DNA of 36,219 bases from a virus (Duplodnaviria > Heunggongvirae > Uroviricota > Caudoviricetes), in IMG/VR virus record IMGVR_UViG_2571042636_000009; one strand, given 5' to 3'. The notes beneath the pieces are model-generated. The model was not told the DNA's origin, ran no database searches, and was given only the letters and a program-made list of their open reading frames with translations. The position numbers were made by a program, and so were the translations under genes. This document shows, piece after piece, positions 14,090 to 18,569 of the stretch (within the stretch, counting starts at the first letter, position 1; each line of letters begins with the position of its first letter).

Positions 14090-14188
14090 TTAAAGGAAAA
14101 GTTGCTGTCTGATTTTCATTAGTCTAACATTTTAAATGTTGGAATCGCAACGTAGTTATTATCATATAACAGCTTGTTTCCTGATTTA

Positions 14189-14217
14189 GCCAGCCTCCCC
14201 AAAGGCTGGTTTTTTTC
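14189..14217 (+). terminator. Rho-independent terminator downstream of Q (candidate tR-prime-like late terminator)
   Basis: Hairpin GCCAGCC-TCCCCAAA-GGCTGG followed by TTTTTTT; about 100 bp after the Q stop, where lambdoid phages carry PR-prime, qut and tR-prime. Confidence 0.55.
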
Positions 14218-14481
14218 TAATAAGTATCATTTCGGGTGGGGATTTTATTGTTTAACCCATAATAGTTCATTGACATTGAATCCCAACTTTTGAGCGGTAC
14301 GCACATAGTCTGCTTTTACATTATCTGGAATAGTTTGGGTCCTTGCCAGAATCCATAGGTATTCTCTGTTCGGACCACTGACAAGAGCATACTTATACTC
14401 ATCATCCAGCTTGATTACATTATAGCCACCATAGAAGGGGCCAAAAAACGAAACTTTCAACGCTGCAGTTTTAGTATCTCC

Positions 14482-14490
14482 AGTAAAGTA
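14482..14490. repeat. 9-bp target-site duplication AGTAAAGTA (left copy) flanking IS10
   Basis: Identical 9-mer immediately outside both IS10 termini (14482-14490 and 15820-15828). Confidence 0.9.
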
Positions 14491-14536
14491 CTGATGAATC
14501 CCCTAATGATTTTTATCAAAATCATTAAGTTAAGGT

Positions 14537-14605
14537 AGATACACATCTTGTCATATGATCAAATGGTTTCGCCAAAAATCAATAATCAGACAACAAAATG
14601 TGCGA
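14537..14605 (-). ncRNA. IS10 RNA-OUT antisense RNA (approximate coordinates)
   Basis: Placed from known IS10 organisation (RNA-OUT is antisense to the transposase translation start near the outside end); not independently verifiable here. A GATC Dam site at 14558-14561 lies in the pIN region. Confidence 0.4.
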
Positions 14606-15806
14606 ACTCGATATTTTACACGACTCTCTTTACCAATTCTGCCCCGAATTACACTTAAAACGACTCAACAGCTTAACGTTGGCTTGCCACGCCTTACTTG
14701 ACTGTAAAACTCTCACTCTTACCGAACTTGGCCGTAACCTGCCAACCAAAGCGAGAACAAAACATAACATCAAACGAATCGACCGATTGTTAGGTAATCG
14801 TCACCTCCACAAAGAGCGACTCGCTGTATACCGTTGGCATGCTAGCTTTATCTGTTCGGGCAATACGATGCCCATTGTACTTGTTGACTGGTCTGATATC
14901 CGTGAGCAAAAACGGCTTATGGTATTGCGAGCTTCAGTCGCACTACACGGTCGTTCTGTTACTCTTTATGAGAAAGCGTTCCCGCTTTCAGAGCAATGTT
15001 CAAAGAAAGCTCATGACCAATTTCTAGCCGACCTTGCGAGCATTCTACCGAGTAACACCACACCGCTCATTGTCAGTGATGCTGGCTTTAAAGTGCCATG
15101 GTATAAATCCGTTGAGAAGCTGGGTTGGTACTGGTTAAGTCGAGTAAGAGGAAAAGTACAATATGCAGACCTAGGAGCGGAAAACTGGAAACCTATCAGC
15201 AACTTACATGATATGTCATCTAGTCACTCAAAGACTTTAGGCTATAAGAGGCTGACTAAAAGCAATCCAATCTCATGCCAAATTCTATTGTATAAATCTC
15301 GCTCTAAAGGCCGAAAAAATCAGCGCTCGACACGGACTCATTGTCACCACCCGTCACCTAAAATCTACTCAGCGTCGGCAAAGGAGCCATGGATTCTAGC
15401 AACTAACTTACCTGTTGAAATTCGAACACCCAAACAACTTGTTAATATCTATTCGAAGCGAATGCAGATTGAAGAAACCTTCCGAGACTTGAAAAGTCCT
15501 GCCTACGGACTAGGCCTACGCCATAGCCGAACGAGCAGCTCAGAGCGTTTTGATATCATGCTGCTAATCGCCCTGATGCTTCAACTAACATGTTGGCTTG
15601 CGGGCGTTCATGCTCAGAAACAAGGTTGGGACAAGCACTTCCAGGCTAACACAGTCAGAAATCGAAACGTACTCTCAACAGTTCGCTTAGGCATGGAAGT
15701 TTTGCGGCATTCTGGCTACACAATAACAAGGGAAGACTCACTCGTGGCTGCAACCCTGCTTACTCAAAATCTATTCACACATGGTTACGTTTTGGGGAAA
15801 TTATGA
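14598..15806 (+). CDS. IS10 transposase
   Basis: 402-aa ORF MCELDILHDSLYQFCPELHLKRLNSL..., recognised as IS10 transposase; starts at IS position 108. Confidence 0.95.
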   Translation: MCELDILHDSLYQFCPELHLKRLNSLTLACHALLDCKTLTLTELGRNLPTKARTKHNIKRIDRLLGNRHLHKERLAVYRWHASFICSGNTMPIVLVDWSDIREQKRLMVLRASVALHGRSVTLYEKAFPLSEQCSKKAHDQFLADLASILPSNTTPLIVSDAGFKVPWYKSVEKLGWYWLSRVRGKVQYADLGAENWKPISNLHDMSSSHSKTLGYKRLTKSNPISCQILLYKSRSKGRKNQRSTRTHCHHPSPKIYSASAKEPWILATNLPVEIRTPKQLVNIYSKRMQIEETFRDLKSPAYGLGLRHSRTSSSERFDIMLLIALMLQLTCWLAGVHAQKQGWDKHFQANTVRNRNVLSTVRLGMEVLRHSGYTITREDSLVAATLLTQNLFTHGYVLGKL

Positions 15807-15819: not shown

Positions 15820-15828
15820 AGTAAAGTA
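15820..15828. repeat. 9-bp target-site duplication AGTAAAGTA (right copy) flanking IS10
   Basis: Identical to 14482-14490. Confidence 0.9.
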
Positions 15829-16299
15829 TGCTTTACCTTCGCTCTCGCTCCATTTGTTTTTCGTTGGATCGTATCCACGGTTAAGTACGCGAATCCCTCC
15901 GTCGTTCCGTTTTTCATAAGTAGCGCTGACCTGTTCCAGACCACGTTCGAACCAGTTCTCGAGGCGAGCTATTTCATACCATTTTCCGAGGTAGCGGTTG
16001 GCGTCAAAATTTGTAATCGGCTGCACACCTTTAGGTGGTGTCGGGGCCTTACATGCTATAAGAGTGAAAGAGAGTGCAATGCCAGTCAACACAGGCCATA
16101 ACTTCATAATAAATCCTGTACTTTTGATAGTTGAGAGTAAGTATGAAAGATAGATGAGTACGACCGATCACTTAAAGAACTTTCCTACTATATTAGGAAT
16201 AGTCAATAACAGAAAAATTGTCAGTGATGAAGCCAGAAAGGCAATTTAGTCCGTGCACTACAAAGTTTATGTGTTAATGAATTAGTCAAGGGGGAGGAA

Positions 16300-17259
16300 A
16301 TGATAAAAAAACCTGTGATTGGGATCAGCGGTTGTTTGGGCGGTTCTGCTGTTCGTTTTGATGGTGGTCACAAAAGAGATGACTTTTTAATGGACAAATT
16401 AGTGGAATGGGTAACATTCAGACCAGTATGTCCGGAAATGGCTATAGGGCTGCCAGTTCCGCGTCCTGCTCTACGACTTGTGCGCTCGAAGCAAGGAAAT
16501 ATACGGATGTGTTTCAGCCACGACCAGAATGAGGATGTGACAGAGAGAATGACAGAGTTTAGTCGTTCTTATATGGACAAATTAAAGGATGTATCGGGGT
16601 TTGTGGTTTGTGCTAAATCTCCCAGCTGTGGCATGGAGCGCGTGCGTGTCTATGATGAAAATGGTAATCGAGGTCGTAAAGATGGAGTGGGACTATTTAC
16701 GAGCACTTTGATGGAAAAGTTTTCCTGGCTACCGGTTGAAGAGGATGGGCGATTACATGATCCAGTGCTTCGTGAGAATTTTATTGAAAGAGTTTTTGCT
16801 TTGCATGAGCTCAATCACCTTTACAAGGAGAAATTATCAAGAAGAGAGTTATTAGCTTTTCATAGTCGTTATAAGCTTCAGTTGTTGGCGCATAGCCAGG
16901 CAGGCTATAAAGATATGGGACCATTTGTGGCTGCAATACACGAGTGGGCGGACCTTGAATCATACTTTGAGGTGTATCGTGATAATCTGATGGCGATTCT
17001 CAGAAAACCAGCATCACGTAAAAATCACACGAATGTGCTGATGCATATACAGGGGTATTTTAGTAATTACTTAAGTACACGCCAGCGTAAAGAGTTGAGC
17101 GAGGTTATACTTAACTATCGCTTTGGCACATTGCCTCTTCTTGCGCCGTTGACTCTGCTGAAGCATTATCTGGGTGAGTATCCTAATGATTACTTGCTTA
17201 CACAGAATTACTTCGATCCCTATCCGGAAGAACTGGCTCTAAGACTGATGGTGAATTAA
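16300..17259 (+). CDS. DUF523 (TudS-like, predicted 4Fe-4S thiouracil desulfurase) fused to DUF1722 (YbgA-like) protein
   Basis: 319-aa ORF with GGAGG RBS; N-terminus IGISGCLGG...VCPEM...KSPSCGMERV carries the three-Cys pattern of DUF523; the C-terminal half is YbgA-like. Cargo position between Q and the lysis genes. Confidence 0.65.
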   Translation: MIKKPVIGISGCLGGSAVRFDGGHKRDDFLMDKLVEWVTFRPVCPEMAIGLPVPRPALRLVRSKQGNIRMCFSHDQNEDVTERMTEFSRSYMDKLKDVSGFVVCAKSPSCGMERVRVYDENGNRGRKDGVGLFTSTLMEKFSWLPVEEDGRLHDPVLRENFIERVFALHELNHLYKEKLSRRELLAFHSRYKLQLLAHSQAGYKDMGPFVAAIHEWADLESYFEVYRDNLMAILRKPASRKNHTNVLMHIQGYFSNYLSTRQRKELSEVILNYRFGTLPLLAPLTLLKHYLGEYPNDYLLTQNYFDPYPEELALRLMVN

Positions 17260-17656
17260 CTGTATGCGATATCATCTGAAAGTGATGAGTTCCTGTATGC
17301 AGGATATTTACAATCGTAAAAACTACGCTATGATGCTCATAGTGTCAGTTTTTATAAAAATCCTGTTCACGCTAAAGAAAACATTGAGATGCAATTTAAT
17401 GTTGGTAAACATACCAGCCCCAAACGATTTTATTCAATCTGTTTTTATATGAAGATATTTCAAGTGAATATTAAGAGTATATAATATTATTATTGCACGC
17501 AGCTATTATAATATAACAGATTAGTTTAATGATTTGTTTTTTGTGAGTTAAACACATGGTTTTATAGTTGTGATGCAATGAGATTTTCCTTATTGTTGAA
17601 CTGGCGAATATTGATTTTCCACCTATACTTACCTGGTGTAACCCCAATGATATCAG

Positions 17657-18379
17657 GTGGATAATATGCCATACATATGTTCTATCATTTTGGTGTTGAA
17701 CTCGTTTGGTGTCCGAATTGGTAAAGAAGATATTTTGTTTAAAAAAGGAAATGCTGTCCTCATTGAATACAATTTAAAAGATCTTTTTTCGTCAAATACA
17801 GATCATCTAATGATCGTAGATGTTGAGGAGAAAACAGTTAATGATTTCTTTAAAAAATACACACTCTCACCTTTTTCTGTAAGAAGGTTTTATCCGTCAT
17901 ACTTGATAGTAGAATGTGAAGATTTTTCATTGTTAAAGAACTTGGTTGCATGCTTGAATTGTGATAGCAAAACCGTGGATGTAGTTAGAAATCAAATATC
18001 ACTTGCATGTCTTGCTGTCTTATCTTCAGAGAAAATAGTGCAAAGTTTTTTGTTCGGAAGTCTTAATAGCTTAGGTTGTAAAGTTAAGGCTATTATTCAC
18101 TCGGATATCTCAGCGTCATGGAGACTTTGTGATATATCTTCAAGATTATATATGAGCGAGAGTTTGTTAAAAAGAAAATTAAAAGACGAAGGATTATCGT
18201 TTAGTAAATTAATTCTTGAAGAACGAATGATGATGGCGCAAAGATTATTGATCTACAGTAACCATACTGTCGGCAAGGTGGCGGGAATATGCGGGTATGA
18301 CAATGCATCATATTTTGTAAGTGTTTTTAGAAGATATTTTGGTGTGCCTCCGCACCAATATTTATCAAGATTTTCTTAG
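17657..18379 (+). CDS. AraC-family transcriptional regulator (AppY-like)
   Basis: 240-aa AT-rich ORF; C-terminal AraC-type HTH (GYDNASYFVSVFRRYFGVPPHQY); N-terminus resembles AppY (MD..C S..F). Start could be the GTG at 17657 or the ATG at 17666. Confidence 0.75.
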   Translation: MDNMPYICSIILVLNSFGVRIGKEDILFKKGNAVLIEYNLKDLFSSNTDHLMIVDVEEKTVNDFFKKYTLSPFSVRRFYPSYLIVECEDFSLLKNLVACLNCDSKTVDVVRNQISLACLAVLSSEKIVQSFLFGSLNSLGCKVKAIIHSDISASWRLCDISSRLYMSESLLKRKLKDEGLSFSKLILEERMMMAQRLLIYSNHTVGKVAGICGYDNASYFVSVFRRYFGVPPHQYLSRFS

Positions 18380-18569
18380 AAGATATGATGTGATGGCATT
18401 TTATAAAGTTATTTTTTGAAGTGTAAGATTATACGATATTTTTAGCTACGCCAGAATAATTGCTGGCGTTTTTCTTTTTGAATAGATGTTCGGGCCTTAC
18501 GCTAATGTAACTTCTTTCCTTCTTCGAACCAAACCGTGTACACCATCCGTTATCTGCGGAGGTGAGGCT

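Follow-up and report, generated by a model that had tools for sequence, protein, structure and literature searches.

An accessory cassette of blc, rudS and an AraC-type regulator gene between Q and the holin gene of a Qin-like Escherichia coli prophage

We analyzed the 36,219 nucleotides of the IMG/VR record IMGVR_UViG_2571042636_000009 (the window, by which we mean this whole stretch of DNA). The window is a Qin-like, lambdoid prophage of Escherichia coli at the rspB/ydfJ site, which is the site used by the cryptic prophage Qin of strain K-12. Its gene content includes an integrase, an exonuclease, dicB/DicF, hok/sok, ydfU, Q, a lysis cassette, cspI, and head and tail genes. The subject of this report is the accessory DNA at 14090-18569, between an antiterminator gene of the Q933W/QuuD type and a holin gene of the essD type. 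This interval contains a gene for a Blc-like lipocalin, which is interrupted by the insertion sequence (IS) IS10; rudS, whose product is predicted to remove sulfur from tRNA; and a gene for an AraC/XylS-type regulator. We think it likely that the three genes are a lysogenic-conversion (moron) cassette in the leader of the lambdoid late operon, and that the cassette moves with one Q933W/QuuD-type allele. The features of the interval and its two flanking genes are as follows.

13697-14089, plus strand: open reading frame (ORF) of the Q antiterminator (PF06530, E = 8e-51); the start annotated in relatives is 13712.
14150-14187, plus strand: leader element, first copy of a 38-nt imperfect direct repeat, directly before the leader hairpin; contains TATCAT.
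14188-14218, plus strand: tR'-like hairpin resembling an intrinsic terminator, GC-rich, with a run of seven T, downstream of Q (terminator scan).
14245-14490, minus strand: 3' part of the blc-like lipocalin gene, codons 94-174 and the stop codon (Lipocalin_2, E = 1.4e-17).
14491-15819, plus strand: complete IS10 (1329 bp) with a 9-bp target duplication, a DDE transposase and RNA-OUT.
15829-16107, minus strand: 5' part of the blc-like lipocalin gene, with a lipoprotein signal peptide (Lipocalin_2, E = 5e-18; lipobox LIAC).
16108-16299, no strand assigned: control region between the divergent genes blc and rudS, a 192-bp spacer with 34% GC.
16300-17259, plus strand: rudS, a fusion of a TudS domain (PF04463, E = 5.8e-40) with DUF1722 (PF08349, E = 9.4e-40); phrog_3275.
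17316-17355, plus strand: terminator-like hairpin after rudS (-17.6 kcal/mol, z = -6.4; none of 200 shuffles folds as well; also found by the terminator scan).
17497-17535, plus strand: leader element, second copy of the repeat, upstream of the regulator gene; contains a perfect TATAAT.
17541-17568, plus strand: promoter-like site TTGTGA-16 nt-TATAGT, about 95 nt ahead of the regulator gene (9 of 12 positions match in the consensus scan).
17666-18379, plus strand: AraC/XylS regulator of the PatE/GadW/AppY type, 237 amino acids (HTH_18, 64 bits; HTH_AraC, 47.9 bits); phrog_1450.
18448-18479, plus strand: terminator-like hairpin with a U-run in the gap between the regulator and holin genes (-11.6 kcal/mol, z = -3.1; also found by the scan).
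18570-18785, plus strand: holin of the P21 type (essD/essQ type), the first lysis gene, 216 nt as annotated in relatives (PF04971, E = 6e-34).

An earlier note on this DNA, made from the sequence alone, had proposed a cargo locus here, and every element on its list lies at the given position or only a few bases away. At the protein level, Q shares 79% identity with its counterpart in the Stx2 (Shiga toxin 2) phage 933W and 86% with QuuD of the prophage DLP12, and is distantly related to the proteins in the Q21 structures. DNA homology to DLP12 ends at 14071 and homology to K-12 Qin ends at 13694; both restart at 18541-18550, which is 20-30 nt upstream of the holin start. Because homology to both prophages stops and then resumes, the interval from Q to the holin gene is cargo relative to DLP12 and K-12 Qin, as the note had supposed. 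The same slot holds nmpC (with IS5) in DLP12 and cspB/cspF in K-12 Qin. The slot is thus filled differently in related phages. Its base composition also deviates (33% GC in the regulator gene, as compared to 47.5% for the whole window), and it contains terminator-like hairpins of its own at 17316-17355 (z = -6.4) and 18448-18479 (z = -3.1). The locus is a real moron cassette, and it is ordinary in kind: elements of this type are textbook. In the searchable literature, which we queried by protein accession and by gene combination, no paper that treats the three genes together turned up. What is new here is the view of the cassette as a unit, along with its measured prevalence in E. coli, its likely chromosomal source, the placement of the regulator in the PatE branch, and the description of the leader repeat.

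The reading frame of the lipocalin gene is not intact in the window, as IS10 splits the gene after codon 93. Fragments matching Lipocalin_2 lie in minus-strand ORFs at 14245-14460 and 15775-16107, and the lipoprotein signal can be read in the 5' part as MKLWPVLTGIALSFTLIAC|K. The insertion is flanked by the 9-bp target duplication AGTAAAGTA (14482-14490 and 15820-15828); it encodes a 402-amino-acid DDE transposase (14598-15806) and, on the minus strand, RNA-OUT (14536-14605; 97 bits). The disruption by IS10 that the earlier note described is therefore confirmed. Excising IS10 in silico gives a 174-amino-acid lipoprotein that is 100% identical to intact alleles elsewhere. The restored protein is 59% identical to Blc from K-12; it scores 312.6 bits against the NCBIfam model for Blc (NF007786; the cut-off is 267) and matches PDB entry 3MBT (E = 8e-67). 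The product of this gene (blc2) would be an outer-membrane lipocalin of the Blc type, which handles envelope lipids under stress, and it is inactivated here by IS10. Among the complete genomes searched, none has the identical IS10 insertion. The exact same copy of the prophage is also absent from the complete genomes of our collection, and its closest relatives there differ in IS content. The slot of DLP12 likewise contains a minus-strand gene for an outer-membrane protein (nmpC) that is broken by an IS (IS5).

The second gene, rudS, encodes a protein of 319 amino acids. The match to PF04463 spans residues 7-149 and that to PF08349 residues 192-309, both far above the cut-offs. The earlier note had recognized a TudS-like N-terminus fused to a YbgA-like domain. 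Those domains were right, and the identification can be refined, as TudS-DUF1722 fusions are already named RudS and are known to strip 4-thiouridine (s4U) from tRNA (Nucleic Acids Res 2024, PMC11417400). The protein from the window is 91.8% identical to RudS_vir (H3V29_gp66) from Escherichia phage 1H12, which was among the enzymes assayed in that study and was found to have tRNA s4U desulfidase activity. The two proteins share their length, the order of domains, Cys12/44/110, and the catalytic Glu, Arg, and Ser-x-Ser residues. Cys12, Cys44, and Cys110 are the predicted ligands of a [4Fe-4S] cluster and align with Cys10, Cys43, and Cys104 of the TudS sequence from the crystal structure. Similarly, the spacing of Glu46, Arg55, Ser107, and Ser109 from the cysteines is that of Glu51, Arg60, Ser111, and Ser113 in RudS_KT. 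Given the activity of the 92%-identical orthologue, rudS in the window probably encodes a [4Fe-4S] desulfidase that reverts the 4-thiouridine at tRNA position 8 to uridine.

Such an enzyme would reduce the photo-crosslinking of tRNA by near-UV light (UVA), which is the cause of the growth delay; over-expression of RudS shortens the UVA-induced growth delay (PMC11417400). E. coli has been said to lack RudS and to have only YbgA, a stand-alone DUF1722 protein (PMC11417400). YbgA and the C-terminal domain of RudS from the window are 49% identical. The prophage gene would give E. coli the full-length enzyme, and the strains examined otherwise carry only this DUF1722 remnant. The RudS paper (PMC11417400) deals with the gene alone, whereas we find it within a cassette that is present in about 16-21% of complete E. 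coli genomes. Phage 1H12 has the same order of genes in the slot (Q, blc, rudS, the AraC-type gene, holin), but the window carries a different allele (dS of about 0.29) in a Qin-like prophage, while 1H12 is a lambda-like Jouyvirus. As a side observation, strain C41(DE3) (locus L079; NZ_CP010585.1, 1588189-1589052) retains Q and an undamaged phage blc, but of rudS just the first 147 nt; in B strains of the BL21 type, the remainder of rudS was lost by an IS3-associated deletion. The published UVA experiment with RudS was done in BL21(DE3) (PMC11417400).

The third gene encodes the regulator, whose HTH_18 and HTH_AraC scores are both above the Pfam cut-offs, so it does have the helix-turn-helix region of the AraC family. 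With this, profile searches in Pfam and NCBIfam have upheld the identification of all three genes. We compared the regulator with PatE, AppY, GadW, GadX, and YdeO. The PatE sequence was recovered from prophage CP-933H in a genome of the EDL933 lineage. For psrA (Z1789), which a review places in OI-50, a tblastn search of 50 kb of CP-933N in a genome of the EDL933 lineage did not find an AraC-type gene. Over its full length, the regulator is 48% identical to PatE from enterohemorrhagic E. coli (EHEC), 33% to GadW, 30% to AppY, and 29% to YdeO. The earlier note had described it as AT-rich and as resembling AppY; it is an AT-rich member of the AraC family, but it is closer to PatE and GadW than to AppY. 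Nor is it an orthologue of AppY, YdeO, or GadX (113.6 bits against a cut-off of 348 for the NCBIfam model of YdeO, and 90 against 500 for GadX). Its DNA-binding domain is 66% identical to that of PatE, with nearly identical recognition helices, and 39-49% identical to those of the K-12 proteins. The AlphaFold2 model (mean confidence, as pLDDT, of 86.5) has a beta-rich N-terminal domain and a C-terminal domain of seven helices. Foldseek comparisons place the model, over its full length, nearest to CsvR, Rns, and ToxT, and the DNA-binding domain fits that of GadX at 1.1 Å. The family is narrow, and its named members are confined to E. coli and its phages.

AppY (from DLP12), GadW, GadX, and YdeO belong to the same AraC/XylS subfamily and have the same two-domain layout, at 29-33% identity overall. 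Both helix-turn-helix motifs are shared with them, including the lysine that is equivalent to K170 of AppY, which is needed for DNA binding. PatE (Z0321) is encoded by prophage CP-933H (OI-8) of EHEC strain EDL933 and has 247 amino acids rather than 237. Both PatE and our regulator are AT-rich and prophage-borne, but the gene for PatE is at the end of its prophage, by tail-fibre and invertase genes, and the gene for AppY is at the far end of DLP12, outside the slot between Q and the holin gene, whereas the regulator gene in the window is inside that slot. PatE, PsrB, and AppY are prophage-encoded activators of the acid-resistance genes gadE and hdeAB, and because of this we associate the regulator with acid resistance. 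By analogy, its binding sites would be AT-rich promoters in the acid-fitness island (gadE, hdeAB), and it would raise tolerance of acid and of stationary phase. As a separate observation, another locus (L167; NZ_CP148493.1, 2653-5138) has a 92%-identical Q that is followed by a different minus-strand gene, a small ORF, and an AraC-type gene whose product is 38% identical to our regulator, and then by tRNA-Ile, tRNA-Arg, and tRNA-Arg as in Stx phages. AraC-type regulators thus recur downstream of this type of Q with other cargo.

The leader of the interval resembles that of phage 933W. The hairpin at 14188-14218 has a predicted energy of -14.9 to -18.4 kcal/mol (z of about -4; at -14.9 kcal/mol, z is -3.9, with 0 of 200 shuffles as good). 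On the minus strand it is weaker and lacks a U tract, so it is not simply the terminator of blc. In the 933W record, pR', a qut site, and two terminators are annotated in the interval between Q and the tRNA genes and stx2, and positions 14167-14216 of the window align, with 43 of 54 positions identical, to 933W 20904-20957, which comprises the second annotated rho-independent terminator and the bases before it. The tR'-like terminator that the earlier note placed at 14189-14217 is therefore homologous to an annotated terminator of a known late leader. In 933W the same slot downstream of Q contains stx2AB and tRNA genes; the cargo differs, and unlike in 933W, we found no tRNA genes in the slot of the window. 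Also, pR' is annotated within a C-terminal extension of Q in 933W, and Q from the window lacks that extension. The hairpin after rudS consists of an A-run, a stem, and a U-run, and could act in both directions. Together, three plus-strand terminators lie ahead of the holin gene, which is consistent with Q-dependent expression of the lysis genes and with self-contained cargo units.

The 38-nt repeat links the leader to the region upstream of the regulator gene. Its two copies are identical at 31 of 38 positions by local alignment, and 0 of 500 shuffles reach this score. The repeat is also present in the allele from phage IdasGreatGrand and is weaker in the allele from 1H12. The TATCAT in the first copy is the hexamer that is annotated as the -10 element of pR' in 933W, and we consider it as a candidate only. 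The repeat may be a recombination joint between the blc-rudS and regulator modules, or it may be a duplicated (late) promoter element. The region upstream of the regulator gene has 31% GC. No Rfam family matched the leader or the spacers at threshold. A sub-threshold match of a betaproteobacterial small RNA over the leader hairpin (28.6 bits, as compared to a threshold of 50) was taken as chance.

The blc-rudS pair traces to a locus of enterobacterial chromosomes. Among species-representative genomes, the nearest RudS proteins from outside of E. coli (70-76% identity) are chromosomal and are found in Citrobacter, Kluyvera, Klebsiella, Enterobacter, and Leclercia. In most of these genomes, a paralogue of Blc that is 78-80% identical to the phage Blc is encoded divergently upstream of the chromosomal rudS, and this paralogue is much closer to the phage Blc than E. 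coli's own Blc is. In Citrobacter sedlakii, blc directly adjoins rudS, as in the phage. In Enterobacter cloacae, the two are separated by a gene for a regulator of the MerR/MlrA type and a transthyretin-like gene. Loci with the order blc, merR (MlrA-like), transthyretin-like gene, rudS are found in Enterobacter, Leclercia, Citrobacter, and Salmonella (ORF319/STM1389). The phage cassette shares the divergent blc and rudS with these loci but lacks the MerR-type regulator and the transthyretin-like gene, and has gained the AraC-type gene downstream. We saw no sequence conservation between the blc-rudS spacer and the Citrobacter chromosomal loci. From these comparisons, the phage cassette looks like a captured chromosomal blc-rudS pair that lost its dedicated regulator. 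The earlier note had called the cargo non-phage genes; this agrees with the source of blc and rudS, but all three proteins belong to established PHROG families and are encoded by viable isolated phages.

The different base composition of the regulator gene (33% as against 43% GC) and its faster divergence than blc and rudS suggest that it was acquired separately. These two features also bear on whether the AraC-type protein is a local regulator of blc and rudS that replaces the MerR/MlrA-like one, instead of a global regulator of acid resistance. In support of a local role, the three genes are nearly always inherited together, the phage version lacks the dedicated regulator of the chromosomal pair, and the 38-nt element is common to the leader upstream of blc and rudS and to the region upstream of the regulator gene. 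Separate acquisition argues against it, as do the related regulators PatE, AppY, and the homologue at L167, which occur in prophages without blc or rudS. Also, PatE, whose DNA-binding domain is 66% identical, acts on host genes. On balance we consider a strictly local role to be distinctly unlikely, and we return to the regulator as part of a lysogenic-conversion cassette.

To describe the distribution of the cassette, we used the IS-free sequence of 3141 bp. Of 5426 complete E. coli genomes, 883 contain at least 80% of it and 1154 contain it at any coverage (about 16-21%). There are two main groups of alleles, with at least 99% and about 94% identity. Q alleles that are at least 93% identical are always followed by the lipocalin (1053 genomes), and other Q alleles of the QuuD type diverge 18 nt before the stop codon. 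The cassette occurs in at least two backbones: after ydfU-Q in Qin-like prophages and after rusA-ylcG-Q in lambda-like phages. Isolated phages that carry it include IdasGreatGrand, 1H12, and the Lambda_ev series. Q, blc, and rudS keep a colinear order in all of 80 loci from IMG/VR; 76 of these loci match the whole reference from Q to the holin gene, and 73 of these 76 have no IS-sized insertion. Two short contigs with the cassette (loci L066 and L071, 92-98% protein identity) come from a metagenome-assembled genome that is labelled as Candidatus Nanosynbacter; their presence in a genome of Saccharibacteria is almost certainly due to contamination of the bin.

All three cargo genes are under purifying selection. 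Between pairs of alleles, dN/dS ranges over 0.07-0.20 in blc, 0.11-0.24 in rudS, and 0.20-0.25 in the regulator gene, with dS of up to 0.59. The cassette has also been damaged many times. Including the IS10 insertion in the window, blc has been hit at least 5 times, and in other strains it is disrupted by IS3 (twice), IS1203, and IS2. IS5, IS903B, and IS1 are found in the leader and in the blc-rudS spacer of other genomes, with IS903B and IS1 in the control region of blc and rudS. In BL21 and C41(DE3), IS3 truncates rudS, and everything downstream is gone up to a partial tail (head-spike-fibre) gene. The regulator gene is frameshifted in strain 410. IS-sized inserts are present in 3 of the 80 IMG/VR loci. 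The independent IS hits overall are IS10, IS3 (three times), IS1203, IS2, IS5, IS903B, and IS1 (including loci L079-L086, L093, L094, and L100). The first 8 of 8 cases fit the idea that IS elements insert only upstream of rudS, but we dropped it because the IMG/VR inserts lie in the regulator gene, in the spacer between rudS and the regulator gene, and just upstream of the holin gene.

Could the cassette be neutral baggage that hitch-hikes with a successful allele of Q and is decaying? With at least 12 independent IS insertions or deletions and complete linkage to the Q allele, this has some appeal. We think that it is very unlikely, given dN/dS of 0.07-0.25 at dS of up to 0.59, which indicates long-term purifying selection on all three genes; moreover, most of the IMG/VR loci span the whole reference without an IS-sized insertion, the cassette is kept in viable phages that have tight limits on genome size, and an orthologous enzyme (RudS_vir) is active. 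That the three genes are a system for anti-phage defence or superinfection exclusion seems extremely improbable. Accessory slots of prophages often hold defence genes, and related Qin-like prophages carry AbiH elsewhere, but PADLOC gave no match for any of the three proteins, each protein has a well-supported family that is not related to defence, and there is no known tie of tRNA s4U, Blc, or GadX-type regulators to the exclusion of phages. Another candidate parallel, the serum-resistance genes orf6 and orf10 of prophage phiv142-3 from avian pathogenic E. coli, proved to be unrelated when checked via the published deletion primers.

We propose that the cassette helps the lysogen to tolerate stress. 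It would combine lipid handling by Blc (which is dead in the window), relief from near-UV light by RudS, and PatE-like activation of the response to acid and stationary phase. In the lysogen, each unit would use its own promoter, which would be weak or silenced by H-NS, and transcription would end at the unit's own terminator. After induction, Q-modified RNA polymerase would start just downstream of Q and pass the three plus-strand terminators. The Q-dependent transcript would cover rudS and the regulator gene in the sense direction, blc in antisense, and then the lysis genes, much as for stx2 in 933W. What the analysis establishes directly is the identity of the genes, the borders of the cassette, the structures of the terminators, the homology to the leader of 933W, the distribution, the purifying selection, and the chromosomal origin; the activity of RudS is that of a close orthologue, and the promoters, the read-through by Q, the targets of the regulator, and the benefit to fitness are inferred.

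The same arrangement raises the question of whether rudS, and perhaps the regulator gene too, is mainly a late gene that serves the lytic cycle rather than the lysogen. RudS that is made from pR' under the control of Q after induction (for instance by sunlight) would erase s4U from the tRNA of the host, so that crosslinked tRNA and the stringent response would put no brake on the synthesis of late proteins. The gene is read in the same direction as the late operon and its Shine-Dalgarno sequence is strong, yet no consensus promoter was found in the spacer upstream of it. The MerR-type regulator of chromosomal rudS is missing from the phage cassette; the type of Q and the leader are like those of 933W, in which the cargo stx2 is a late-gene product; and the shorter growth delay after UVA upon over-expression of RudS would fit as well. 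On the other hand, rudS is followed by a strong hairpin of its own, which is typical of an autonomous unit, and defective prophages that cannot lyse the host retain intact rudS under purifying selection. We judge that a mainly lytic role is unlikely, although it deserves more weight than the other alternatives, and the two readings are compatible and not mutually exclusive.

A more elaborate version is a sunlight module run by the late switch, in which both copies of the 38-nt repeat would be Q-responsive starts, and induction would lead to a burst of RudS and a burst of the AraC-type protein. The RudS would erase UVA-sensitive s4U from the tRNA of the host and keep late translation running. 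We regard this as a long shot. If true, phage late genes would for the first time include an eraser of an RNA modification, and the Q-loading region would be a duplicated one.

Several observations weigh against a stress-tolerance cassette for the lysogen. First, we have no confident promoter: consensus matches are no more common than in shuffled sequence, and the consensus scan found none in the blc-rudS spacer (16108-16299). Second, the exact pR' and the Q-binding site could not be placed by comparing prophages that have the same Q and different cargo; since Q alleles that are at least 93% identical always come with the lipocalin and never with other cargo, pR' is not delimited. Third, RudS_vir was produced at a good level and had the weakest tRNA desulfidation of the RudS proteins tested, relative to protein level (PMC11417400). 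Fourth, the N-terminal domain of the regulator is just 34% identical to that of PatE, so its signal and its partners may differ from those of PatE. Fifth, the cassette is often struck by IS elements or deletions, including in blc here and in rudS in BL21 and C41(DE3), which implies that it is dispensable in many strains. Finally, our search of the searchable literature turned up neither expression data nor a phenotype for the cassette. Even so, we still consider a lysogenic-conversion cassette to be the probable explanation.

A few other features of the window are worth recording. Inside the lysis cassette, a minus-strand ORF of 98 amino acids (19033-19329; phrog_25324) lies between a shortened ydfR-like gene (72 amino acids) and the lysozyme gene. 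It has no match in Pfam, NCBIfam, or PADLOC and is accompanied by its own terminator-like hairpin (19008-19027). In related prophages, a full-length ydfR abuts the lysozyme gene. This ORF looks like a second small moron. Upstream of Q, two plus-strand ORFs of 370 and 333 amino acids (9004-10116 and 10132-11133) occupy the stretch from the DUF977 gene to hok/sok. Their matches in Pfam (a HEPN/RES N-terminal domain; GNAT) all fall below threshold, and PADLOC gives none. At the same position, strain ECCWS199 has AbiH and a gene of no assigned function, so the slot is variable and its cargo may serve defence. The window also encodes the sok antisense RNA with an ORF for a HokD-like toxin (11582-11756 and 11751-11906) and the DicF small RNA (4757-4808). 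A thermoregulator leader of the cspA type (20690-21105) precedes a cspI-like cold-shock gene (20844-21059), which is followed by a GnsB-like gene.

The cassette illustrates how a moron can form: a chromosomal stress locus, minus its own regulator, was put into a late leader of the 933W (Shiga toxin) type, and the captured cassette now moves with one allele of Q across different phage backbones. Its regulator is a widespread member of the PatE/PsrB/AppY group of prophage-encoded proteins that are tied to the acid-resistance network and, in EHEC, to the control of virulence as well. If it behaves like its relatives, it contributes to the differences in acid tolerance between strains. About 1 in 5-6 complete E. 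coli genomes have a full-length prophage rudS, and strains of the BL21 type have a truncated remnant. Because the carriage of rudS varies by strain, the choice of strain may affect studies of near-UV light and of 4-thiouridine in E. coli.

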